NCBI GenBank assembly: GCA_041489155.1
Contig: JBGPQP010000001.1
Location: 87,824-151,823, forward strand
From: Candidatus Aenigmatarchaeota archaeon
GTDB taxonomy: Archaea; Aenigmatarchaeota; Aenigmatarchaeia; QMZP01; QMZT01
Length of the DNA: 64,000 bases
Direction: 5' to 3'
Every line of letters starts with the position of its first letter. Position 1 is the stretch's first letter. The notes below the pieces were generated by a model. The model was not told the DNA's origin. It did not search any database and saw only the letters and a program-made list of their open reading frames with translations. The position numbers and the translations under genes were made by a program. This document shows, one piece after another, positions 6,111-14,072 of this stretch.

Positions 6111-6236
6111 CACCTTTATTTCCACTGGAGTTTTGTTTTTTGTTTTAAAGCTAAACTTTACGTATACGTATACGTATTATAACGATGTTATAAGTTTCCA
6201 CAGGAAATTAAAATATAGTTCCACAGGAAATTGGGG
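6111..6236. promoter_or_regulatory. Predicted replication origin (oriC): three ORB elements around an AT-rich unwinding element
   Basis: Minus-strand ACTCCAGTGGAAATAAAGGTG (6111-6131); plus-strand GTTTCCACAGGAAAT (6194-6208) and GTTCCACAGGAAATTGGGG (6218-6236). AT-rich spacer, directly upstream of cdc6. Confidence 0.8.
6159..6176. repeat. (TACGTA)x3 palindromic tandem repeat
   Basis: TACGTATACGTATACGTA read directly; an 18-bp perfect palindrome. Confidence 0.9.
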
Positions 6237-6280
6237 TGTGCGAGGCAAAAACATTTAAACCCCCGTTTCATATGGAAAAC

Positions 6281-7489
6281 ATGGCCCAAGTTTCCCTCAA
6301 TAATATTTTCCAAGATTATCTGGAAAAGAAGCCCATTTTCAAGAAAAAAGACATGCTAACAAGTCAGTTCACACCGGACACCATACCACACAGGGATAAA
6401 CAGATCAATCATATCGGTCTCATCCTGGCGCCGGTGCTCCGCGGCGAAAAACCATCCAACATATTCATTTACGGAAAGACAGGCACCGGCAAGTCTCTCT
6501 GCGTCCAGCACACGGTTTCAAGGCTGCTGGAAACGGCCAAAAAAAACGAGGGCGAAAACATCAAGGTAATCTACATTAACTGCAAGATGAGCAAGGTCTC
6601 CGATACCGAGTACAGGATGCTTTCGCAGCTTATACTAAATTTTGGCGTCAGTGTCCCTTTCACGGGCCTGCCGACAAACCAACTTTACCAACAGTTTTTC
6701 AGCCTGCTTGACGCCAAAAAACAGAGCATCATCCTGGTCCTTGACGAGATAGATGCGCTGATTAACAAAATAGGAGACGGCGTGCTTTACAACCTCACAA
6801 GGGTCAATCAGGACCTGAAGAACGCAAAACTCACGCTTGTCGGCATATCCAACAACATATCCTTCATAAACGATCTTGACCCGCGGGTCAAATCCTCGCT
6901 GTCGGAAGAGGAAATAGTTTTTCCGCCCTACAACGCAAACGAGCTTAAGGACATACTAACCGAAAGGGTAGGTTCCGCCTTCAATGAGGGAACGATTACT
7001 CCATCCGTTATAGCGAAGTGCGCGGCCCTGGCAGCGCAGGAGCACGGCGACGCAAGGAAGGCGCTCGATCTGCTGAGGGTTGCCGGAGAGACAGCAGAGA
7101 GAATGAGCAACAACATGGTGGCCGAAGAGCACGTTGACCAGGCAGAAAGGAGGCTGGACATGGACAAGACGACAGAAATAATAAAAAACCAGCCAAAACA
7201 ATCCCAATGCGTCCTTATTGCGATACTAAAACTCGCGAAGAACGGCAACAGCGGCATACAGACAGGCGACATATACGACGTGTACGTAGACGTCTGCAGG
7301 AATAACAATCTCAAGCCGCTGACCCAGAGAAGGGTGTCAGACCTAATATCCGAACTCGACATGTTCGGGATAGTGAACGCCAAGGTGATATCCAAAGGAA
7401 GATACGGAAGGACAAGGGAAATAAAGACGGACCTTTCGAAAGAAACCACGGAAAAGATAGAAAAGATGTTCAGCGGCGAGTTTATTTGA
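6281..7489 (+). CDS. cdc6: Orc1/Cdc6 replication initiator
   Basis: PHRDKQI, Walker A GKTGTGKS, Walker B LDEID, GDARKALDLL, winged-helix SKGRYGRTR. TTTAAA at 6254-6259 favours start 6281 (alternative 6272). Confidence 0.96.
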   Translation: MAQVSLNNIFQDYLEKKPIFKKKDMLTSQFTPDTIPHRDKQINHIGLILAPVLRGEKPSNIFIYGKTGTGKSLCVQHTVSRLLETAKKNEGENIKVIYINCKMSKVSDTEYRMLSQLILNFGVSVPFTGLPTNQLYQQFFSLLDAKKQSIILVLDEIDALINKIGDGVLYNLTRVNQDLKNAKLTLVGISNNISFINDLDPRVKSSLSEEEIVFPPYNANELKDILTERVGSAFNEGTITPSVIAKCAALAAQEHGDARKALDLLRVAGETAERMSNNMVAEEHVDQAERRLDMDKTTEIIKNQPKQSQCVLIAILKLAKNGNSGIQTGDIYDVYVDVCRNNNLKPLTQRRVSDLISELDMFGIVNAKVISKGRYGRTREIKTDLSKETTEKIEKMFSGEFI

Positions 7490-7498
7490 ATTAAGGTT

Positions 7499-8386
7499 AT
7501 GGCCAAGCTTATGAACAAAAAAGACATAATCGATTTGTTTCTTAAAAACGGCGTCATGCTCGCGCCGGATGAACTGGAAAACATCAGCGAGCAGAACTAC
7601 ATGCAGGTGCTCGAGAAAAAGCTTGGCGAGACGAATGACGAGATATTGATCGCCAAACAGAGCAGCGGTAAAATTTCATGCGGCGATTTCATAAAATTAT
7701 GCAACAGGAAATTCGAGTTCCTCAGGGAGATCCTGCTTAAAAAAACAGACGCCGTGTCGATAAACAAGGGAAGGAAGGTTTTTGCCGAGGCGACAATCAT
7801 AGGAAGGGTGAAGGAAAGGAACGCAAACGGATTCGTGCTCGAAGATGTAACGGGAGAGACAGAAGTAGTGAGTGAAAACAACGACATAAAAACAGGCGAT
7901 ATTGTCGGTTTGCGCGGCTTTTTCAAGGAGAATCGTTTTTTCCCGAACCAAATCATATGGCCCGACATCCCGCTCGAGAATAATCCAAGGCCACCCGGCA
8001 TAAAAATCACGCTCACAACTAGGGCAAAAGACAGCATGGCCGGCCTGATAGTATGCTCTTCCGGCGGCAAGGCTAGCAACATGATATCCGGGTTCGGAAG
8101 GCTCGGATCCATAAAAATAAAAAAGCATGGCAGCGAAATTCATCTGCTCGCCTTTTCGCCTGAAAAGGAGATGAGCGAGGATGATACTGTCAAAACGCTC
8201 AAGAAAAGGCAGATATCAGATGACGGCATCGCTGACAACCTGATAGCCGAGATACCAGGAATTTTCTGGCTTTTCAACAACGGCAAAAACTGGACCAAAA
8301 ATTACAGGGGCGTTGTCGTAATATCAAGCGATTCAGGAAGTTTTGCGGAATATGACAACGGGGAAGTCCACTTCGCGGGCTTGTAG
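7499..8386 (+). CDS. Shortened, catalytically degenerate homolog of DNA polymerase D small subunit (DP1; B-subunit-like)
   Basis: DP1-like N-terminal domain (FLKNGVMLAPD), DF...RKFEFLREIL, OB fold (IIGRV...LEDVTG...DIVGLRG...WPDIP), and C-terminal LKKRQI...DNLIAEIPGIF...YRGVVVIS. No DxH, GD, GNHD or GHxH metal ligands. Confidence 0.75.
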   Translation: MAKLMNKKDIIDLFLKNGVMLAPDELENISEQNYMQVLEKKLGETNDEILIAKQSSGKISCGDFIKLCNRKFEFLREILLKKTDAVSINKGRKVFAEATIIGRVKERNANGFVLEDVTGETEVVSENNDIKTGDIVGLRGFFKENRFFPNQIIWPDIPLENNPRPPGIKITLTTRAKDSMAGLIVCSSGGKASNMISGFGRLGSIKIKKHGSEIHLLAFSPEKEMSEDDTVKTLKKRQISDDGIADNLIAEIPGIFWLFNNGKNWTKNYRGVVVISSDSGSFAEYDNGEVHFAGL

Positions 8387-8422: not shown

Positions 8423-9097
8423 ATGCTCAAAATACTCGTCATCGCGGACATACATGGGGAGTTCGAGAAGTTCTCAAAAATCATAGACAAGCTCAGCGGC
8501 AGGGATTTTGACCTGGTGATCTGTCCCGGTGACTTTACCGACATATTCAATATACCTGAAGGCTATTCCCAGATGGACATAGCCGAACTGATAGTCCAGA
8601 AACTGCTCTCGCTGGGCAAGCCTCTCTTCTGCATACCTGGCAACCACGAACCTTATGAAATAATAGACGTGTTCGATGAATACAACGTGAACCTGCATGA
8701 AAGAACGAGGAAGTTCAACGATTTCGAGTTCGTGGGCTTCGGCGGGGCAGCAACACCATTCAACACCAAGTTCGAGCCCACGGATGAGGAAATAAAACAG
8801 GCGCTTGAGAGAAAGACCAAGGAAATAAAAGGCAAATTTATACTGGTCACGCACAACCCGCCGCTTGGTACCAACTTGGACAAGGTTGAAACAGGAGAAC
8901 ATGTCGGCTCGAAAGCGATTCGCGAATTCATAGAGCAGCGAAAGCCCCTGCTTGCGATATCCGCCCACATACACGAGGCAGGAGGCACGGACAAGCTTGG
9001 AAGCACGACCATATTCTATCCGGGCGTTGCCTACGAAGGGTATTACGGCCTTGTTGAGATAGGTGATGAAATAAAATGCGAGATAAAAAAGATATGA
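8423..9097 (+). CDS. Calcineurin-like metallophosphoesterase
   Basis: ADIHG, GDFTD, GNHE, THNPP, AHIHE motifs. Confidence 0.9.
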   Translation: MLKILVIADIHGEFEKFSKIIDKLSGRDFDLVICPGDFTDIFNIPEGYSQMDIAELIVQKLLSLGKPLFCIPGNHEPYEIIDVFDEYNVNLHERTRKFNDFEFVGFGGAATPFNTKFEPTDEEIKQALERKTKEIKGKFILVTHNPPLGTNLDKVETGEHVGSKAIREFIEQRKPLLAISAHIHEAGGTDKLGSTTIFYPGVAYEGYYGLVEIGDEIKCEIKKI

Positions 9098-11205: not shown

Positions 11206-11400
11206 CCCCTTCATTTCCTGTGAAACATGAGCAAAACAAGCTTATATAGGACATGTTTTAAAATATAATTTCCATAAGAAATGAAGGTTGTTTCACCTTC
11301 ACCGTGAAATTACCAGCGTTGAAAATGAAGGTATCCTTCGTGAACTTCATGCAAAACTCCACAGGAAACAGAGGGGGTTCATACTTCATGGTGAAGTTCA
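11206..11400. promoter_or_regulatory. Second ORB cluster (candidate origin/Orc1-binding site) between convergent genes
   Basis: Minus GTTTCACAGGAAATGAAGGGG (11206-11226); plus TTTCCATAAGAAATGAAGG (11269-11287); plus CTCCACAGGAAACAGAGGGGG (11357-11377). AT-rich stretch at 11240-11270. Confidence 0.7.
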
Positions 11401-11432: not shown

Positions 11433-14072
11433 TCAGATTACAATGCTGCTGGCAGGTCCTTGCGGCGAAGAGAACAGCAGTAAACCACCGCATTCGCAGG
11501 CTCCGCTTAGCGGAGGCATCGCATATGTTTTGCAGCATTTTTTGCAGATGAAGCCGTTAAAGTCTTTCATGGAAACTTCCTTCGCTTCAATCGCTTTTCC
11601 GCCATTTCCGTTCAATATGCCGAACAAATCGATCTGCTTGCCTTTGCCAAGAAGCTCGGTCTTTGAAATGCCTAGCGCATCGAATATTCGTTCGAGCGGA
11701 GGAAGCAGCTGGTTTTCTATGTAGTACTTCGAGTCTATTTCCAGCCCCCGTTCCATGACGTAAACCGGGTCTTCCGCCCTTTTTGACAGGAGATCGAGGC
11801 CTTTTATTATCACATAACCAATCCTGTCCCCGACGCCTGGCGCTTCAGCCGGCGTGCGTTTCTTTATCTTTTTCACGAGTTCTGCATGCGGCTGCATGCC
11901 GTCATAGCGTTCCGCTCCTTTGGTCATGGTCTTGGTTATTATCAGCTTCTGTATGGGTATCCCGCCAGTGACCATTTCATCAGTAACGTTTTTGAAATAT
12001 TTCACAGCCTGCTTGATGTCATTTGCCTTGAGTATGGTTTCCAAAATCTTCTCTATTGTTTCTGATGTAAGATCGCACCAGTCTCTCCGGACGGTTTCAA
12101 TACCCTTCGTTTCTATGCTTTCAACCCAGCTCCCGTTGACGTAATCGAAACGCCATGCAGCATAGCGTTTTTTTGTGAGAGGCAGGAAGCGCTTGAAAAT
12201 TTTCTCGAAATCAAGTTCCATCACGCCCTTCAGGCCTGACGTAACGTTTTTGGCCACTTCGTCTCCGGCTTTCTTCATCTCATCGAGATCCTCGAAAGGC
12301 ACCTTGACCATCACGGAATCCGTGTCACCGTAAACGACCCTGTAGCCGAACTTCTCCTCTATGTATTCTTTCGTCTTCTTTATGGTTTCCCTTCCGAATC
12401 CGGTTATCGAGTTGGCTATTTCAAGAGAGTAGATTTTCGCTCTGGGGTAGCCGAAATAGCCATAGAAGGCGTTGGCCATTATCTTGAGGGCGAACTGCTT
12501 CGCTTTCAGTTCACGTATGCGTTCAGGCTTCGGCTCCTTCTTCATTTCCCTTTTCACGTTTTGCCTCTCCTTCATAAGATGCTCCAGTATCCGTGGTATT
12601 ATCCCCTTCCTGACGTTTTCTGGCACGAATCTCGCCCCGGACGGCGACTGCACGGCGCCCTCGATTTCTCCGTCCAGAAGCAAAGTCGTCGGGCACATGT
12701 TATACGTCCGGATGAGCGAAGGGTACATGGACTTGAAATCAAGCACAAGGACGCTTGAGTGCAGGCCCTTGTCAGGTTCTATAACGAAACCGCCTTTCAA
12801 TTCGACCTTTCTGGCGTTTTCCCGCTTGGCGACTTCCATGTTGTCCGACTTGCATGGAATTATGAAGTTCTCTTTATTGAACTCCCTCAGTATAAGGTTT
12901 TCGATCCTCGTGGTCTCGCCGGAATCAAGTATGTCCTGCAGTAGGATTCCTGAAATCTTGGAAAGAGCAATGTACTTGTCCAGCAGGTTGAGTTTCAGCA
13001 AAAGGTTCATCGCGATAACGGAGTCCTTTTTCGCGTAATTCACCAGAAGCCTGAATTTTTCCTGGTTGCCCTTCCAGAGCTTTTCTATCTCCGATTTCTT
13101 CACAGGTTCCTTTTCCTCGCCGAGCAGCTCAAGACCCACGGTGTTCAGGTCATATCTCTTGAGGGAGAAGTCACGTTTGACAATTTCAAAGGAATCAACT
13201 ATTACCCTCCCGGATATGTTTATCTTGAATCTGCTCATCATCTGGTGTTTCGTAACGGGTTTTGTGCACCTACCGAAACTCGCGAATACCCCTCTTTCCT
13301 TCATTCTGTCGAGTATGTAGGGTATGTCGAAGTTATTGACGTTGAAGCCGGTGATGATGTCAGGGTCATAGTCCATTATTACGTCTATCAGTCCCCTGAG
13401 CATTTCACTTTCGTCCTCAAAAAAGGTAACGTCCTTGTCGGACCTCGTGCTCAGCACCATTTCCTTCCTCCCCTTGTGCGCATCGCTGAAAACGAGCGAA
13501 ATCATTATTATCGGGTCCTTCCTGCCGTCAGGCATTTCCCCCTCTTTAAGCGAAACGCACTCTATGTCAAGTGCCAGATATTTCAGCGGCGCGATGCCAT
13601 CCTTGTCGGCATGCCTGAATTCCTTTATTTTTATCCTTTTTTCCGTTTTCACGGTGTTCGTCGGGACGCCGTTCGTGTCTTCAACTTCCAGCCAGTCCAT
13701 GCCCTTTAGGCCGAAGTCCGCCATGAACCTGTATTTGAAAGGAATGTCAGCCTCGAAGACACGGAAGCCTCTTGACATGAGCTTTTCCCTCAGCTCAGGC
13801 GTCTTTGCAGGATTTTTTATTACGACTTTCCAGACATCCTTCATCTCCGTCTGGTAGCCGAGCGGAAGGAATTTTTTCACCTTCTCCAGACGCACGAAAT
13901 TCGCTTCGTTCTTTACATGATCCTCGATATTGTTTCCGAGCACGTAGAAATAGGGCTCGAAATTCTCGTAGAAACCGCATACGGTTTCGCCATTTTCAGT
14001 CTTGCCGAAAAGCCTTATTATCGGCTTTTCGTCGACCAGCGTGTAGTCCACGTCGAGTATCTGGAAAAGCAT
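11433..14072 (-). CDS. polB: Family B DNA polymerase, Pol-delta-like, with C-terminal PIP-like box and DP2-type Zn finger
   Basis: Exo I DIEC, Exo II FNVNNFD, Exo III YAKKD; DFKSMYPS, KIMANAFYG, YGDTDS, KKRY, KGIETVRRDWC. C-terminal QIDLF and CKKC...PPLSGACECGG. Confidence 0.96.
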   Translation of the reverse strand: MLFQILDVDYTLVDEKPIIRLFGKTENGETVCGFYENFEPYFYVLGNNIEDHVKNEANFVRLEKVKKFLPLGYQTEMKDVWKVVIKNPAKTPELREKLMSRGFRVFEADIPFKYRFMADFGLKGMDWLEVEDTNGVPTNTVKTEKRIKIKEFRHADKDGIAPLKYLALDIECVSLKEGEMPDGRKDPIIMISLVFSDAHKGRKEMVLSTRSDKDVTFFEDESEMLRGLIDVIMDYDPDIITGFNVNNFDIPYILDRMKERGVFASFGRCTKPVTKHQMMSRFKINISGRVIVDSFEIVKRDFSLKRYDLNTVGLELLGEEKEPVKKSEIEKLWKGNQEKFRLLVNYAKKDSVIAMNLLLKLNLLDKYIALSKISGILLQDILDSGETTRIENLILREFNKENFIIPCKSDNMEVAKRENARKVELKGGFVIEPDKGLHSSVLVLDFKSMYPSLIRTYNMCPTTLLLDGEIEGAVQSPSGARFVPENVRKGIIPRILEHLMKERQNVKREMKKEPKPERIRELKAKQFALKIMANAFYGYFGYPRAKIYSLEIANSITGFGRETIKKTKEYIEEKFGYRVVYGDTDSVMVKVPFEDLDEMKKAGDEVAKNVTSGLKGVMELDFEKIFKRFLPLTKKRYAAWRFDYVNGSWVESIETKGIETVRRDWCDLTSETIEKILETILKANDIKQAVKYFKNVTDEMVTGGIPIQKLIITKTMTKGAERYDGMQPHAELVKKIKKRTPAEAPGVGDRIGYVIIKGLDLLSKRAEDPVYVMERGLEIDSKYYIENQLLPPLERIFDALGISKTELLGKGKQIDLFGILNGNGGKAIEAKEVSMKDFNGFICKKCCKTYAMPPLSGACECGGLLLFSSPQGPASSIVI

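Follow-up and report, generated by a model that had tools for sequence, protein, structure and literature searches.

A family-B DNA polymerase of an aenigmatarchaeon with a DP2-type zinc tail and a probable degenerate DP1-like partner

The stretch of DNA analysed here, referred to as the window, comprises 64,000 nucleotides of contig JBGPQP010000001.1 in the assembly GCA_041489155.1 of a Candidatus Aenigmatarchaeota archaeon. It encodes a family-B DNA polymerase (PolB) that the original prediction, made by a model from the letters alone, had described as Pol delta-like and as extended at its C-terminus by a zinc finger. We report that this extension resembles the C-terminal zinc finger of DP2, one of the two subunits of the archaeal polymerase PolD, and that a degenerate relative of the other subunit, DP1, is encoded close by and probably held by it. 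The polymerase gene and the features of its product are:

11433..14072, minus strand: PolB gene, 879 amino acids, predicted group B6-type family-B DNA polymerase with a C-terminal zinc tail (translated open reading frame and Pfam)
12075-12107, minus strand: KGIETVRRDWC, residues 656-666, a string quoted in the original prediction
11805-11894, minus strand: QPHAELVKK...GYVII, residues 727-756, quoted likewise
11706-11780, minus strand: RAEDPVYV...IENQL, residues 765-789, quoted likewise
11619-11639, minus strand: KQIDLFG, residues 812-818, quoted likewise
11613..11636, minus strand: PCNA-interacting protein (PIP)-like box, Q813-L820 (QIDLFGIL), in a linker of low model confidence (conservation and alignment with KOD PolB)
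11436..11585, minus strand: predicted C-terminal zinc-ribbon module, residues 830-879, with C843, C846, C859 and C861 followed by a conserved LLFSS..GP strand (cysteine conservation, model and DP2 homology)
11532-11546, minus strand: CKKCC, residues 843-847, inside the stretch 11483-11553 in which a cysteine module had been predicted
11490-11498, minus strand: CEC, residues 859-861, inside the same stretch

Pfam recognizes both the polymerase domain (DNA_pol_B, 8.5e-111) and the exonuclease domain (2.3e-43) of a primer-dependent family-B polymerase in the 879 residues, and the same scan returned no intein family. We collected 125 homologues of 857-937 amino acids with 45-81% identity, nearly all of which, where names are given, come from Aenigmarchaeota/Aenigmatarchaeota and a few from Nanoarchaeota. 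In their alignment, D169/E171, N244/D249, Y346/D350, D445/Y450, K530/N534/Y537/G538, Y581-S586 and K634-Y637 are invariant, which covers ExoI-III, motifs A, B and C and the KKRY motif. Judged by these domains and catalytic residues, the protein is an intact proofreading family-B polymerase free of an intein, as the original prediction had stated, and all strings quoted there are present in the translation. The AlphaFold model of the protein has a mean predicted local distance difference test score (pLDDT) of 88.8. One homologue (P0201) contains an intein including a LAGLIDADG domain that is absent from the copy in the window, and some tailed B6 PolBs reach 1305-1339 amino acids (frames in G049:C4 and G021:C67).

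Among the sequences in the PDB, human Pol delta was the best match of PolB with 412.9 bits, followed by PolBs from Thermococcales with 392-404 bits (top 403.9) and, at lower scores, by yeast Pol delta (385 bits), Pol zeta (241) and Pol alpha (236). A fold search with the AlphaFold model placed catalytic subunits of Pol delta in the four top positions and KOD PolB in the fifth, with 1.9e-70 and a query template-modelling score (TMq) of 0.82 for 9ekb_A versus 1.8e-67 and a TMq of 0.76 for KOD. The genome contains a second PolB (contig 7, 833 amino acids), which ends 20 amino acids past a canonical QSSLDAFV box and reaches 569 bits to a Thermococcales PolB versus 153-157 bits to Pol delta; by these scores it is a true, ordinary B3. 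In the window PolB, the similarity to Thermococcales enzymes does not exceed that to Pol delta (404 versus 413 bits), and 59 residues follow the PIP-like box, whereas the KOD alignment and the B3 paralogue end at or just after theirs. The ranking of scores and folds and the contrasting scores of the B3 paralogue therefore indicate that the window PolB is not an ordinary B3, the grouping that would have told against the original prediction. Its core is no more distant from eukaryotic Pol delta than from archaeal B3, and our placement in the 'Delta-like clade' follows the published classification (Kazlauskas et al., 2020; PMC7544198) and these score comparisons. The three thumb strings, noted by eye as resembling Pol delta, indeed match Pol delta better than they match KOD in the alignments, and cysteines in ExoI (DIEC, C172) and motif A (NMC, C460) are common to PolB and Pol delta but not to KOD. 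That typical archaeal PolB3 proteins end at the PIP box was true of our comparison set, namely the KOD alignment and the B3 paralogue of the same genome. A search of genome contigs for related loci yielded a single distant PolB from Thorarchaeota.

The 59 amino acids that follow the PIP-like box contain a predicted C4 zinc ribbon, in which C843, C846 and C859 are invariant in 125/125 homologues and C861 is a cysteine in 124/125. The second knuckle reads CxC in 120 homologues and CxxC in 4, while 1 was unmatched, and with this conservation the tail is not a chance pattern of cysteines. In the AlphaFold model, residues 830-879 form four beta strands with a pLDDT of 80-84. A continuation of about 55 amino acids beyond KQIDLFG into a CxxC...CxC module had been proposed; the module was borne out, the length has to be corrected to 61 residues beyond G818.

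Several comparisons connect this tail to DP2. By BLASTP, it matched the C-terminal end of a DP2 from the same class with an E-value of 7e-8 and 41% identity over 39 amino acids. A profile built from seven PolB tails, without any DP2 sequence, was searched against the PDB, and its top three matches were all DP2 chains from Thermococcus kodakarensis and Pyrococcus abyssi (2.1e-8, 1e-7 and 1e-7), aligned at DP2 residues 1127-1161 and 1119-1153, respectively; an adenylate kinase followed in fourth place with 3.8e-4, four orders of magnitude behind DP2. A mixed profile of PolB tails and DP2 ends had also matched DP2 chains in the PDB, but was set aside as circular and replaced by the tails-only version. 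When a 68-residue tail query was run against genomes of family f11 from the same class, it matched the C-terminal ends of DP2 frames in four of them (G036, G029, G043 and G050) with 33-44% identity over about 36 residues. The joint alignment of PolB tails and f11 DP2 ends has F-x-C-x-x-C, Y-R-R-x-P-L-x-G and C-x(1,2)-C-G-G in common, with F, C..C, P, G and C.C invariant, so that the likeness reaches past the cysteines to an F before the first knuckle, YRR.PL.G between the knuckles, and GG.L after the second. The alignment of the tail to DP2 C-termini, which had been suggested as a check of the original prediction, was thus obtained both by BLASTP and with the tail-only profile. We conclude from these alignments that the last approximately 50 residues of PolB form a C4 zinc ribbon that shares its ancestry with the zinc finger at the C-terminus of DP2, and that the tail is a single finger of the DP2 type and not the two-motif C-terminal domain (CTD) of eukaryotic polymerases. 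The same tail is present in a UniRef50 fragment from the assembly ex4484_14, the PolB of which is listed as B6 in Table S4 of PMC7544198. The f11 DP2 proteins (L021-L024) end in a PIP-like QFSLSSF or QMSLVGF box about 45 residues past their zinc finger. In three PolD-keeping genomes, the tail query matched frames of 203-236 amino acids instead of DP2, with 48-54% identity over 26-31 residues (G007:C2:26110-26214, G022:C25:89577-89681 and G057:C22:59634-59723), which may belong to a different protein that carries a zinc ribbon of this type.

Between thumb and zinc ribbon, the 125 homologues contain a box with the consensus G809-x-G811-[KR]-Q813-x-x-[LIV]816-x-x-[AIV]-[LIF]820, in which Q813 is invariant and position 816 is L, I or V in 125/125. 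In the alignment it coincides with the box at the C-terminus of KOD PolB, and it is modelled as a short helix (813-820) within a segment of very low confidence (residues 810-829, pLDDT <50). Canonical PIP boxes have an aromatic pair at their last two positions; in the window PolB, the corresponding residues 819-820 (box positions 7-8) are aliphatic. A conserved QxxLxx-aliphatic box in a flexible linker between the thumb and the zinc ribbon may serve to tether the polymerase to PCNA, of which the genome encodes a single one (contig 6).

The source genome has a size of 1.13 Mb and is 89.65% complete. Within this assembly, DP2 (PF03833) gave 0 hits, and the Pfam family of DP1 (PF04042) was not detected even at an E-value of 10. 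A DP1-like protein is encoded in the window nevertheless missed by that family, and its neighbourhood is as follows:

6236..7489, plus strand: Orc1/Cdc6 gene, immediately preceding the DP1-like gene (Cdc6_C 1.2e-29, Cdc6_lid 1.9e-25)
7499..8386, plus strand: DP1-like (B-subunit-like) gene, 295 amino acids, product apparently catalytically dead (phmmer, profile and model)
8423-9097, plus strand: calcineurin-type phosphoesterase, 224 amino acids, with intact motifs (PF00149 8.6e-22), 37 nucleotides past the DP1-like gene

All 11 DP1 candidates of the class matched the open reading frame at 7499-8386 by phmmer, with E-values from 9.3e-6 to 5.4e-15, and when the PDB was searched with a profile of the DP1-like family, all matches below an E-value of 0.1 were DP1 chains of PolD (3.3e-7 to 1.8e-5). 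The model of the protein (pLDDT 87.3) was most similar to DP1 of P. abyssi (1.7e-13), followed by the B-subunits of Pol delta (2.1e-9 for 6tny_B), zeta, epsilon and alpha; among 50 matches with E-values of 0.001 or below, 49 were of the DP1/B-subunit kind, and the 50th was a lysyl-tRNA synthetase. In an alignment with f11 DP1, all five phosphoesterase motifs of the 295-residue protein are lost and the segment around motif III is deleted. This is the end of a gradient, as f11 DP1 proteins retain DxH, GDxxD, GNHD, H and GHxH, forms of 346-392 amino acids retain some of these motifs and the 295-residue form none. The family comprises 50 members of 186-313 amino acids with 38-92% identity and invariant residues, and we regard the protein, by these alignments, as a conserved, catalytically dead relative of DP1 that is kept in the source genome. 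Its members (P0139-P0188) have no precomputed Pfam domain and are named 'hypothetical' in all but two cases, which amounts to an annotation gap. The neighbouring 224-residue phosphoesterase was considered as a split-off nuclease domain of DP1 and rejected, given that no DP1 candidate matched it and its best PDB match was aq_1956 (1.1e-7).

For the distribution of these genes, 61 genomes of the class were surveyed, a sample that is not made up of independent cases and that divides into 8 genomes of family f11 and 53 of other families. DP2 was found in 8/61, which are 8/8 of family f11 and 0/53 of the others, whereas the 68-residue tail query matched in 52 of the 53 non-f11 genomes, in frames of 582-1339 amino acids. 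DP1-like genes without stops occur in 60/61 genomes, and the one genome without a match is 57% complete. In the f11 genomes that were searched with PolB (5/8), only a PolB of about 770 amino acids with 33-35% identity to the window PolB was found. The DP1-like gene lies directly upstream of the tailed PolB gene on the same strand in 40/53 non-f11 genomes; the two genes are on opposite strands and 1.5-3.9 kb apart in 9/53 (the source genome, its order and G014), on different contigs in 2/53, and in another 2/53 one partner was not found. The order Orc1/Cdc6, DP1-like and PolB was seen in five of six inspected relatives (L026-L030); in the sixth (L025), DP1-like precedes PolB and the stretch ends just above the DP1-like gene, so that the gene upstream is out of view. 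In the source genome, Orc1/Cdc6 is followed by the DP1-like gene and the phosphoesterase, and the PolB gene is convergent to them at a distance of 3 kb.

A model of the complex was computed from the DP1-like protein (alignment of 51 rows) and PolB residues 796-879 (125 rows). It obtained interaction prediction scores from aligned errors (ipSAE) of 0.67, 0.67 and 0.66, compared to 0.02 for the best control. The runs shared at least 54% of their contacts, with a partner pLDDT of at least 62. The mark of this test is reached by 116/157 solved complexes and 2/215 mismatched pairs, counts that hold only roughly here because custom alignments were used. Contacts are predicted for PolB residues 832, 835-836, 841, 851-857, 864-867 and 874-879 and for residues 54-72, 103-117, 132-133 and 242-245 of the DP1-like protein. 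According to this model, the tail of PolB probably holds the degenerate small subunit encoded 3 kb away.

We interpret the window PolB as the catalytic subunit of a two-subunit, Pol delta-like replicase of Aenigmarchaeota (DPANN) that belongs to group B6, subtype 'B6-aenigma1', and assign a probability of about 0.8 to this reading. The zinc ribbon and the C-terminal strand would dock PolB onto the DP1-like protein in the way that DP2 docks onto DP1 and eukaryotic CTDs onto their B-subunits. Proofreading would be supplied by the exonuclease domain of PolB itself, which could make the loss of the DP1 nuclease tolerable. In kind, this architecture is already known from the published descriptions of B6-aenigma1 (PMC7544198) and of a two-hybrid interaction (PMC12680538). 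Our additions are small: the counts of gene order (40/53), the broken, convergent arrangement in the source lineage, the motif-less 295-residue DP1-like protein missed by Pfam and the conserved internal PIP-like box.

A number of observations weigh against this interpretation. The cysteine in ExoIII, which together with those in ExoI and motif A is given as a signature of the Delta-like clade (PMC7544198), is absent from the window PolB (YAKKD versus YCLKD in Pol delta). The PolB tail stops short of the roughly 45 residues of helices and the QFSLSSF box with which same-class DP2 continues beyond its finger, and the PIP-like box lacks its aromatic pair. A phmmer search with the tail only (58 amino acids) against 1.84 billion representative sequences gave 18 hits with no DP2 among them, so that the link to DP2 depends on sequences from the same class or on a profile. 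The tail of Aenigmatarchaeota was also described as degenerate, a DP2CTD whose predicted structure differs (PMC12680538). Since DP1-DP2 and CTD-B-subunit complexes have been solved, the complex model may owe its score to memorized structures, and it speaks for likeness rather than for binding of the copies from the source genome. Finally, the absence of DP2 is deduced from a genome of 89.65% completeness, and in the source lineage DP1-like and PolB no longer form one operon.

Of the competing explanations, an accessory role fares best: the B6 PolB could be derived from a mobile element, with the B3 paralogue as main replicase and the DP1-like protein as a decaying relic or the subunit of another partner. 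A viral or mobile provenance was suggested for groups B4 and B6 (PMC7544198), the B3 paralogue with its canonical box is complete, and the DP1-like protein is devoid of any catalytic motif and uncoupled from the PolB gene in the source lineage. The recurrence of the tail in 52/53 genomes without DP2 and of uninterrupted DP1-like genes in 60/61 genomes differs, on the other hand, from the patchy occurrence that a mobile element would show. The DP1-like family has 50 members that keep invariant residues at 38-92% identity, the 295-residue protein is modelled with a confident fold, and neither an integrase nor a repeat boundary was seen beside the PolB gene in the window. We consider this explanation unlikely, at odds of roughly one in ten.

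Slightly less credit still is due to the idea of a generic zinc ribbon that looks like the DP2 finger without deriving from it; the tail would then stabilize the thumb or act in DNA or PCNA binding, with no relation to the DP1-like protein. Zinc ribbons are short and recurrent, and the tail-only profile also matched the zinc lid of adenylate kinase. The isolated 68-residue tail belongs to no Pfam family, including the zinc-finger family of C4-type polymerases, and it directly follows a PCNA-box-like motif. Unrelated proteins were among the results of the tail-only phmmer search: eight of the 18 hits were scanned with Pfam (the other ten have 69-179 amino acids), and of these, four were complete or fragmentary PolBs and the remaining four were odd repeat proteins (P0189, P0192, P0193 and P0200). 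With up to 2243 amino acids and 5-18 matched stretches each, the repeat proteins are probably compositional matches. A generic ribbon would however leave the likeness to DP2 beyond the cysteines unexplained, as well as the lead of DP2 over every other PDB chain and the occurrence of the tail just where DP2 is missing and a DP1-like gene is kept and adjacent. It would also be at variance with a complex model that passes its controls and with the yeast two-hybrid result reported for the phylum (PMC12680538).

An ordinary PolB3 with a lineage-specific appendix, whose Pol delta look would reflect the general similarity of B3 to Pol delta, is highly improbable, because even though B3 enzymes are known relatives of Pol delta and those of Thermococcales still reach 392-404 bits, the genome's real B3 has the opposite score profile, the f11 PolBs of about 770 amino acids fall clearly outside the 45-81% identity found within the family, and Table S4 of PMC7544198 keeps B3 and B6 proteins of Aenigmarchaeota apart.

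Returning to the two-subunit replicase, its parts can be combined into a further-reaching proposal that we hold only tentatively, with somewhat less than even odds: the lineage may have the furthest-reduced natural PolB/B-subunit replicase, and the gene pair behind orc1/cdc6 may reflect a swap of polymerases at an origin-linked replication locus. The docking module would then be reduced to about 50 residues, made up of the terminal strand and a single zinc ribbon of DP2 origin in which one knuckle is CxC, and would hold a 295-residue subunit that has lost the five nuclease motifs and the motif-III segment, while the PCNA box would have been left behind in the interior of the chain, within a flexible linker. 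A strict swap in place, in which DP2 was displaced from an orc1/cdc6-DP1-DP2 operon, is unsupported: DP1 and DP2 lie on separate contigs in 8/8 f11 genomes, and at the four f11 DP1 loci examined, the approximately 0.3-0.75 kb of sequence visible upstream contained no Orc1/Cdc6 frame.

Just upstream of orc1/cdc6, TTCCACAGGAAATT occurs in two exact copies at 6196-6209 and 6219-6232. The same region also has a look-alike at approximately 6119-6131, a further one in inverted orientation at 6266-6277 and an (ACGTAT)3 tract rich in AT, so that all of these elements fall within positions 6119-6277 of the window. We take these repeats to resemble archaeal mini-origin recognition box (mini-ORB) elements, and for this reason the region is probably a replication origin. 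ORB-like 12-mers with at most 2 mismatches are found 18 times in the window, against an expectation of 7.97, and 0/100 shuffled sequences reached 18. Three more ORB-like 12-mers with 1-2 mismatches are situated at 11214-11368, in the 227-nucleotide gap that separates a membrane-protein gene from the 3' end of the gene for PolB.

If the further-reaching proposal of a polymerase swap is correct, the lineage could serve as a living model for the assembly of the eukaryotic Pol delta/alpha architecture from parts of PolD. The B6 PolBs with a DP2-derived tail have a bearing on the origin of the eukaryotic replisome because they are the closest archaeal look-alikes of the Pol delta/alpha design, a point that is already in print (PMC7544198, 2020; PMC12680538, 2025, with two-hybrid data). 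The window offers a clean and complete example: within 8 kb it brings together the polymerase, the degenerate small subunit, Orc1/Cdc6 and what is probably an origin. It also reveals a sub-lineage whose small subunit escapes Pfam and is annotated as 'hypothetical'. In the literature searched, we found no further study on PolB/PolD or DP1 of Aenigmarchaeota, and the main texts of PMC7544198 and PMC12680538 do not mention the gene order of PolB and DP1 in terms of operon, adjacency, synteny or neighbourhood. Table S4 of PMC7544198 nevertheless gives DP1 and B6 at adjoining coordinates for one assembly. Neither the example OIN85950 of PMC7544198 nor the accessions of our PolB homologues had a match in the supplement text that was searched.

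Eukaryotic Pol delta (POLD1/Pol3 with p50/Pol31) resembles the proposed complex in its core, its proofreading PolB, its inactive DP1-type subunit and its cysteine-rich C-terminal docking module. It differs in the CTD, which in Pol delta is helical with two C4 motifs, CysA binding zinc and CysB an iron-sulphur cluster (PMC7544198), whereas the window PolB has a single C4 module that is all-beta in the model and contains no helices. With PolD (P. abyssi 6hms/6t8h, T. kodakarensis 6knb), it shares the ribbon that aligns to DP2 and a homologue of DP1. Its catalytic core, in contrast, is a PolB and not the double-psi beta-barrel of DP2, its DP1-like protein is devoid of nuclease motifs, and the helices and terminal PIP box after the DP2 finger have no counterpart in the PolB tail. 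Closer still is the PolB3-DP2CTD of Baldrarchaeia, to which 'B6-aenigma2' was reassigned (PMC12680538). There as well, a PolB is fused to a DP2-derived CTD, DP2 is gone and DP1 is kept, and the fusion is reported to bind DP1 in the yeast two-hybrid assay. The Baldrarchaeial CTD is described there as being of full length and similar to those of DP2 and eukaryotic polymerases, unlike the window tail, which consists of a zinc ribbon and about 18 further residues; the tail of Aenigmatarchaeota was classified as a degenerate DP2CTD in the same work, and a yeast two-hybrid interaction between DP1 and PolB-DP2CTD was reported (PMC12680538). The best correspondence is with group B6, which was defined for Aenigmarchaeota and Methanosarcina within the 'Delta-like clade' (Kazlauskas et al., 2020; PMC7544198). 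In Table S4 of that study, near-full-length B6 proteins of Aenigmarchaeota have 884-887 amino acids, and the separate B3 group extends up to 788-790, with shorter rows being partial. The CTD of 'B6-aenigma1' is described as having one metal motif with its closest counterpart in the DP2 CTD, most Aenigmarchaeota as lacking DP2, and an inactive DP1 as retained (PMC7544198). The window PolB agrees with this description in its origin from Aenigmarchaeota, a length of about 880-890 amino acids, the Pol delta-like core and a single DP2-type metal motif (C843/C846/C859/C861), and its genome in the missing DP2 and the inactivated DP1 that is kept. As far as the published account of B6-aenigma1 goes, nothing is substantially different, and the window PolB is best regarded as a further member of this subtype.

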